In this document: piece by piece, positions 61,816 to 62,597 of the stretch | How positions within the stretch are numbered: position 1 is the first letter of the stretch | How the letters are laid out: every line of letters begins with the position of its first letter | Assembly (NCBI RefSeq): GCF_964213995.1 | Contig: NC_135809.1 | Coordinates: 106,268,001 to 106,332,000 of the forward strand | Reading direction: 5' to 3' | DNA length: 64,000 bases | Origin: Mustelus asterias | Taxonomy: Eukaryota | Made by a program: the position numbers and the translations under genes | The notes under the pieces: generated by a model | Database searches by the model: none | What the model saw: the letters and a program-made list of their open reading frames with translations, nothing else | Told to the model about the DNA's origin: nothing

Positions 61816-62320
61816 AGGCCCGATTTTACCAAAACTTTGTGCCCGTAAATCGCGGTAAAGTTGGGCTTCGGGCCTATACTGTGATCTGCACTCGATTCCG
61901 AGCAGATCGCGGTTTTACCGACACCCGATTCGGGCACAGGTCCGGCCCGCGCCAGAATTGGGTGGCCTGACGATATAAATGCATTAGCATGCATTTAAAT
62001 TGACTTAATGAACCTGCGGCCCAACCCTACCGCCAAATCCCACTTTACCGTCTTCTGGCCCATTCCGGATCCGCGCTTTTAGCGACCTGCAGAATAAAAG
62101 TCCGAAGCGGATTTCTATTCTGCAGGGGAACCTCCGAAGCCCTCTCTGCCCTTGTGAAGTCACCATCCTCCTCGACCATCCTTCGCGGACCCCTCCGCTA
62201 ACCACCCCGGCAGACCCCCCCTCCCCCCGGGATCAGACCCCCCTGGGAGGCAGGGCCCCCCCCCGGCAGAGCACACCCCCAACCTACCTCGATCGCTGGT
62301 CTCCCTCCACCATCCTTCCG
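61816..62320 (+). mobile_element. non-autonomous Harbinger-type element (copy 3), left arm
   Basis: AGGCCCGATTTTACCAA TIR; homologous to copy 1 until CATCCTTCC. Confidence 0.85.
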
Positions 62321-62597
62321 TTAGCAAGATAAGCTGTATGTTCCTCAGCTAGATCCACTTTGGTCAACACAAAGATGGTCCTTCTGCCTTGTGGGTCCAT
62401 CTGGCTCACCAAGTCAGTTACAATACTGCGTTCAGCATCTACTGAACCATCTTGGATACAAAGGATAATGAATGGTACTGGTCGATCTTCCTGGTGCTAT
62501 CAGTACTGTAACATCAGGAATGGCTGCCGACACCAAGGATATAATTTTTAGCATAAGCAAGGCTTACATGCAAAACCCTAATGCCATTATCCTTTGT
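62320..62597. pseudogene. OPA1: processed OPA1 GTPase-domain mRNA fragment with internal inversion
   Basis: Plus 62472-62597 reads [42 protein letters not shown]; minus 62470-62320 reads [42 protein letters not shown]; no introns. Confidence 0.92.

Follow-up and report, generated by a model that had tools for sequence, protein, structure and literature searches.

Overall structure of the window copy

Listed in Table 1 are the features of an OPA1-bearing element found in a stretch of 64,000 nucleotides of the Mustelus asterias genome, hereafter referred to as the window. The first base of its left TIR is unlike that of the family, GGGCCCGATTTTACC, and its left arm is also akin, more distantly, to elements that encode transposases. 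The OPA1 cargo begins where the transposon arm ends. On the plus strand, positions 62472-62597 match residues 394-435 of human OPA1 (E 7.5e-18), and on the minus strand the piece starting at 62469 matches residues 432-477 (E 5.2e-22). The DLPG and TKVD sequences are presumably the G3 and G4 motifs of the OPA1 GTPase. A previous reading, made from the sequence alone, had placed OPA1 GTPase pieces in 62320-62597, and these matches on both strands bear it out. That reading counted two abutting pieces. Both are indeed OPA1, but the one on the minus strand is itself composite. Its outer end (62320-62348) encodes EHTAYLAN, amino acids 797-804 in P0016 numbering, derives from 990 nt further along the coding sequence and is joined to the remainder via a 5-nt microhomology. 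Spliced exon junctions are located between 62451 and 62450 in the inverted arm and between 62504 and 62505 in the sense piece.

Table 1. Features of the OPA1-bearing element in the window
Feature	Positions	Strand	Remarks
Left TIR of the window element	61816-61830	+	Homology to other copies begins at 61816
Left arm, non-autonomous Harbinger-type element	61816-62319	+	Common to OPA1-free sisters
Outer end of the inverted OPA1 arm	62320-62348	-	Coding nt 1226-1254 from Met387
5-nt microhomology, CTGAG in coding sense	62344-62348	-	Site of the 990-nt deletion defining the short subfamily
Inner part of the inverted OPA1 arm	62349-62470	-	Coding nt 114-235, IILCIQDG...TKVDLAE
Central 5'-to-5' junction of the inverted and sense arms	62470-62471		1-nt microhomology; 483 places
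Sense OPA1 piece from Met387	62471-62597	+	MVLVDLPG...IILC
Outside the element: G-rich tract, then an older unrelated repeat from ~62758	62598-63763		Occupies the place of the lost part

The sense piece stops early, at 62597, where sister copies continue for 65 nt more and then enter the right arm. Lost from the window copy are this end of the cargo (65 nt), the right arm and the right TIR. The repeat that starts at ~62758 is 67-83% alike to its other copies. No right arm of the window copy was found in the ~17 kb past the window, the arm matches there belonging to other elements. The feature is a single short-form copy that is broken and whose right end has also been lost. The 13-mer CATTATCCTTTGT is found at 62585 on the plus strand and at 62458 on the minus strand. 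Thus the 5'-to-5' join proposed earlier stands, at 62470/62471, as does the 13-mer, but the 13 nt are not the original overlap. Given that the window's short form lost 65 more nt of cargo together with the right arm, they represent the stump of an overlap of 78 nt in the short form and 1,141 nt in the master form.

Elsewhere in the window, a 52-nt inverted repeat with no gap and 88% complementarity spans 57729-57832 and resembles head-to-head short repeat ends. A third copy of its arm lies 1.5 kb upstream at 56176-56225. Positions 59580-59800 contain four degenerate 38-nt direct repeats that are 61-84% alike.

The parent gene and its spliced copy

The parental OPA1 gene is located on the minus strand of G000:C3 at about 37.26-37.34 Mb. 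From Met387 to the stop codon (P0016 numbering) it is composed of 17 exons and 16 GT-AG introns, and 14-32 of its 567 residues there are unlike those of the shark and skate proteins compared. The sequence-only reading had cited introns of human OPA1 at about GVIN/TVTS and CIQ/DGS. The parent has both, at VIS/TVT and CIQ G/AT, and the window copy reads through them. Indeed, in the long cargo copy L036 all 16 introns are precisely missing when compared with the genome's own gene, as the proposed spliced RNA source requires. Assembled contigs of a public run, guessed to be RNA, display the spliced parental message across the 13-mer; two short contigs of the same run span the central junction by just 18 letters and were left uncounted. 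The template for the cargo is spliced OPA1 mRNA, the copied part beginning at Met387 and reaching 10-13 nt beyond the stop codon. No more than 3 nt separate the 3' end of the cargo from the splice donor in the parent's stop-codon exon. For the ~20 nt that follow the cargo, neither the sister elements nor any exon within ~160 kb beyond the parent's stop exon proved to be the source.

One short-form copy, L045 (G000:C3:37294800-37296000), sits within an intron of the parental OPA1 gene, and its sense arm is oriented as the gene is.

Master form, short form and derivatives

A search with the OPA1 C-terminal family PF19434 yielded 120 matches, mostly long and intron-free, with 117 of 157 candidates scored. 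Thirty-four long loci, picked among the best-scoring matches, were fetched, and all 34 retain an arm or a TIR. The master form deduced from them is ~3.7 kb in length and reads, in order, left arm (~480 nt), inverted OPA1 (1,141 nt, coding nt 1254 to 114), sense OPA1 (~1,715 nt, Met387 to 10-13 nt beyond the stop codon), ~20 nt and right arm. The two OPA1 arms overlap by 1,141 nt with a 114-nt spacer between them, and the inverted arm falls entirely within the span of the sense arm.

In the short form, 990 nt have been deleted from the inverted arm at a 5-nt microhomology and the sense arm is gone after nt 191, leaving an arm overlap of 78 nt. Of the other best copies, 14 of 19 extend to an overlap of 72-79 nt, past the 13 nt of the window. 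The short form is the most abundant, with its deletion junction at 446 places. The long copies carry many differing internal deletions, and the spacer is flipped in L027, L038 and L141. A stem of at least 200 bp is preserved in 18 of the 34 long copies, three of which have stems of more than 1,000 bp.

The absence of a poly(A) tract and a TSD, and the start of the cargo at the end of the Harbinger homology, both noted in the earlier reading, hold beyond the window. None of the 20 cargo ends displayed has an A-tract, and no clear duplication flanks the cargo. Of the 44 places with a stop-codon end, one is the parent, 42 run into the right side of the element and one is an element with a later insertion of ~2.8 kb. 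A query with amino acids 250-386 gave four matches, all of them parental exons, and no copy reaches upstream of Met387. Since every non-parental OPA1 3' end (43/43) lies within the element and none extends into residues 250-386, no free retrocopy was found. A single-armed precursor was likewise not found, the central junction being present in all ten copies displayed with the Met387 start.

Several copies are irregular. L031:3628-6323 has the palindromic interior of a sister element as its left half, joined to the OPA1 sense arm on the right, and retains several ancestral alleles. This hybrid points to template switching between subfamilies. Copies L082 and L202 are split by insertions of 2.8-3 kb that are LINE-like by eye, that in L202 being located exactly at the 3' junction of the cargo.

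Copy number and footprints of transposition

A DNA search of the genome gave 628 candidates, and the 40 that were scored each align over 297-301 of the 301 query bases at 98-100% identity. The central junction is found at 483 places with two or fewer mismatches allowed, against zero for a reversed-pattern control, and the deletion junction of the short form at 446 places, its control likewise giving zero; both counts are lower bounds. The 15-bp TIR is present at both ends in 23 of 30 loci that have the exact junction, in genome order. Matching 3-bp TSDs flank 17 of these 23 two-ended copies and comprise eight kinds of triplet, with TAA or TTA in eight copies; in the first copy set, 8 of 14 had matching 3-bp TSDs. 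Among 42 left flanks, no pair shows 60% identity or more over 60 nt. The element moved as one unit, as is evident from the TSD footprints, and the earlier suggestion of a cargo mobilized by a DNA transposon is upheld by the 483 junction places and the distinct TSDs.

Four other explanations fail: segmental duplication, as the flanks are unrelated and the TSDs differ; assembly chimera or chance, given the 483 places and the short-form junction bridged in contigs of the public DNA runs X2 and X7; many independent retrocopies, as the ends and the junction are identical throughout; and a single retrocopy, given a central junction at 483 places. Taken jointly, the spliced template, transposition as a unit, and the internal deletions with amplification of the short form are very nearly certain.

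The window stretch is contained, in whole or in part, in 20 of the 24 public runs listed, among them runs that bear the label "shark metagenome". In public data under five organism labels, 41-66% of the words of the stretch are present.

The carrier element and its relatives

Judging from the TIR, the 3-bp TSDs and DDE_Tnp_4 relatives that have the same ends, the carrier is a non-autonomous Harbinger-type element. According to PMC9179366, PIF/Harbinger elements have TIRs of 25-50 bp, 3-bp TSDs, a DDE_Tnp_4 transposase and a Myb ORF. As described there, the likeness to non-autonomous members lies in the TIRs, in the 3-bp TSDs leaning toward TAA/TTA and in the relatives with the same ends; the differences are a perfect TIR of just 15 bp and an interior made of palindromic host mRNA. 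Harbinger was not found in the elephant shark, as reported in that source, whereas the present genome yielded 10,689 DDE_Tnp_4 candidates (150 scored). Of twenty such loci that were fetched, several share the TIR, are flanked by 3-bp TSDs and are 70-85% identical in their arms. L157, L160 and L145 match PF13359 (DDE_Tnp_4), and a second, convergent ORF of ~400 amino acids is 82% conserved between L157 and L152. No Myb domain was detected by Pfam in 4 long and 20 short frames of the candidate autonomous elements, and the arms of none of these are close enough to name the mover.

Note that of the first 20 places with the exact end of the left arm, 14 lead into another interior. The closest OPA1-free sisters are about 77-93% identical in their arms and have palindromic interiors of 0.76-1.1 kb; smaller palindromes are present in transposase-bearing relatives. 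The palindromic interior of the sisters gave no Pfam match in eight frames and no protein homologue. No source for it stood out in the genome because, of 1,716 candidates, the 150 scored were all 90-100% alike.

A number of smaller observations concern these relatives. A commoner sister subfamily with the same arms (L094:1080-2514, L100 and L090, on G000:C1 and C2) carries a different sequence of ~550 nt that forms a near-perfect 1.1-kb palindrome and may be another captured host sequence. L142, L145 and L150 are 3.6 kb long and contain a DDE_Tnp_4 frame; they share the TIR and, close to their right end, the motif of the left-arm end, and two of them contain small palindromes akin to the sisters' interior. 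At its inner end (62462-62470 of the window) the inverted arm has a 9-mer that recurs in the palindromes of the more distant sister elements L063, L098 and L142; 7 nt of it are found in the closest sisters, and the match is possibly due to chance. Near-identical open transposase frames on the small contigs C96, C140, C471 and C111 suggest that the Harbinger-type transposase family was active recently.

Origin of the cargo and of the inverted arm

A Harbinger-type family carries a spliced, mirrored fragment of OPA1 at about 480 places. As to how this came about, our leading reading is that spliced cDNA was captured in the interior of the element, mirrored by DNA foldback, spread by transposase and carried along as a neutral passenger. 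To this chain as a whole a tentative probability of roughly 45% is assigned. A host reverse transcriptase would have produced the OPA1 cDNA which, once, through repair-type capture at a break, would have replaced an earlier palindromic interior of the element. The free 3' end of the cDNA, at Met387, may have paired with its own strand 114 nt back, and foldback copying of 1,141 nt would then have generated a long hairpin. The element would subsequently have spread, creating new 3-bp TSDs, with a DDE_Tnp_4 element having the same TIR as the most likely source of the enzyme. The palindrome collapsed through internal deletions and flipping of the spacer, with one short derivative becoming the most amplified.

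The evidence leans toward repair-type capture in that the cargo lacks a poly(A) tract and a TSD and ends no more than 3 nt from a splice donor. Self-primed inverted duplication from small hairpins has been proposed at L1 breaks, as outlined in 10.1101/2024.12.14.628481. At the two breakpoints there is a 5-bp inverted match, AATGG/CCATT; foldback via this match misses the exact junction such that a 4-nt slip is needed, and the strict microhomology is 1 nt. When the cDNA end was folded as DNA, the minimum-energy structure did not contain the foldback hairpin.

It is also conceivable, but rather unlikely, that a LINE-made retrocopy of OPA1 came first, either inside a copy of the element or brought in by gap repair, and was trimmed, with the foldback following later; capture during repair and a later-trimmed retrocopy had both been raised in the sequence-only reading. 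Internal deletion is rampant in the family and, as the interior of the element is constantly being deleted, an original poly(A) tract and TSD could have been lost. The amplified retrogenes of bat Helitrons, as presented in PMC4224331, offer a precedent, and three to four derived amino-acid changes in both arms suggest a phase as a single copy. Indeed, derived S>G646, E>G845 and N>D964 occur in nearly all copies in both arms, where four outgroup cartilaginous fishes agree with the parent. Arm-to-arm conversion is evident, however, in the flipped spacers and in that sites 620, 730, 1187 and 1221 leak across the arms, and derived changes common to both arms thus need not predate the duplication. 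The arms diverge by 3.2% within a copy versus 4.0% between copies. Against a LINE retrocopy as the first step, the genome searches revealed no free or longer retrocopy, and a 3' end at an exon end just beyond the stop codon would have to be a coincidence.

Twin priming, the mechanism put forward in the sequence-only reading, is distinctly unlikely. According to this scheme, a single LINE event primed twice on OPA1 mRNA and formed both arms at once, the product being later trimmed and mobilized. The upstream inverted arm, the 5'-to-5' junction and the tiny (1-nt) microhomology are those of 5'-inverted processed pseudogenes as described for L1, no single-armed precursor was seen, and 17% of inverted L1 insertions have internal duplications in the account given in 10.1101/2024.08.27.596794. 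The geometry therefore fits, and twin priming and foldback yield the same one. In that same long-read survey of twin-primed L1 insertions, the medians are 14.5 and 22 nt, with 22 nt the median for duplications, whereas the OPA1 overlap is 1,141 nt, ~50 times the reported median, and has been inherited and multiplied within a DNA transposon. Furthermore, the arms are not complementary in coverage, the inverted arm lying wholly within the sense arm; derived changes are common to both arms; and the cargo lacks the 3' poly(A) and flanking TSD of processed pseudogenes, although its introns are precisely missing as in them. Finally, equally long palindromes are found in sisters without OPA1, which makes DNA foldback likelier than twin priming.

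Comparison with known systems

Retrogenes spread by a DNA transposon are already known from the Helitrons of vesper bats. PMC4224331 describes four events and 118 copies with poly(A) and TSDs kept, and presents them as the first report for any DNA transposon. As in those bats, spliced mRNA copies are nested in a DNA transposon and were multiplied by their carrier. As that source describes them, the bat carriers are rolling-circle Helitrons, whereas the present one is a cut-and-paste element with TIRs; the bats have four events and 118 copies, against one event and ~480 places here; and, unlike the bat inserts, the OPA1 cargo has no poly(A) or TSD and includes an inverted duplication of 1.1 kb.

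The Pack-TIRs of animals, which include Ssk-FB4, contain captured genomic DNA with a median length of 224 bp and occur for the most part as single copies; any intronless capture of a multi-exon gene was removed by design from the screen that defined them (PMC8277862, in whose main text the word "Harbinger" is missing). With multicopy Pack-TIRs as reported there, the OPA1 family has in common host sequence held between TIR arms and copies spread by transposition; the parent OPA1 is without transposon ends and there are several transposed copies. Unlike published Pack-TIRs as that text portrays them, the cargo consists of 17 spliced exons at hundreds of places. The family is a clear vertebrate case of duplication in two steps, namely an RNA copy followed by mass spread through a TIR DNA transposon. 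This route was filtered out of the main animal Pack-TIR screen and, going by the same accounts, is otherwise known from bat Helitrons in fewer copies. The available text of PMC12350158 and PMC13320880 holds nothing on this element. In the open-access literature, as distinct from repeat databases and supplements (the Pack-TIR list and the VGP retrocopy table), no report of the family was found.

With the parent, the master form, its derivatives, cargo-free sisters and transposase relatives all in one assembly, the succession of events lends itself to reconstruction across related sharks. The copies would distort OPA1 read mapping in this lineage as well as counts of gene-family members and of retrocopies, and such counts would mislead in that the copies reflect one RNA event rather than hundreds. 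Amplification of a fungal housekeeping gene by a transposon has reportedly been described in one study.

Divergence and possible function of the cargo

Between the majority sequence of the cargo and the parent there are differences at 29 of 1,717 sites, of which 12 are synonymous, 15 nonsynonymous and 2 past the stop codon. Long copies differ on average by 2.4% from the majority sequence and by 3.8% from the parent, and 22 short copies by 3.0% over the cargo. By comparison with the outgroups (P0097 was left out, being out of register in an ungapped comparison), the lineage of the element accounts for 11 of the 15 amino-acid differences and the parent for the other 4. The majority sequence is an open frame of 567 codons from an in-frame ATG. 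None of the 34 long copies keeps the full frame, the longest reaching 519 codons, and their private changes are near neutral (180 synonymous versus 162 ± 11 simulated, P 0.06). From these comparisons the cargo is most likely a neutral passenger.

Hairpins formed by pseudogenes can give rise to silencing small RNAs. With hundreds of copies of an essential gene at ~96% identity, some of them able to form hairpins, pseudogene-derived silencing can be put to the test. In one scheme this Harbinger lineage would repeatedly capture host RNA where its own palindromic interior is broken, mirror it by foldback and scatter inverted-repeat copies by the hundred, the predicted double-stranded RNA silencing OPA1 in trans and the interior of the sisters being an earlier capture. 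We consider this improbable; if true, OPA1, an essential gene of mitochondrial fusion, would be the target of silencing. Still less probable is that the cargo has been kept or amplified for a function, either as a source of hairpin RNA giving small RNAs against OPA1 or as a truncated OPA1 starting at Met387. In favor of a function, the sense arm of the master form runs from an in-frame ATG to just past the stop codon with the majority frame open, stems of at least 200 bp are found in 18 of 34 long copies and identity to the parent is ~96%; but no long copy has the full frame, private changes are near neutral, the master lineage bears 11 derived amino-acid changes, and most of the cargo is gone from the short form that prevailed. 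The reading as a neutral passenger is thus preferred.

Of the 11 amino-acid changes that arose in the element lineage, six are A-to-G when read on the sense strand (coding nt 620, 646, 845, 964, 1363 and 1568). Five of these six sites have a 5' G neighbor, which we take to be unlike the typical context for editing.
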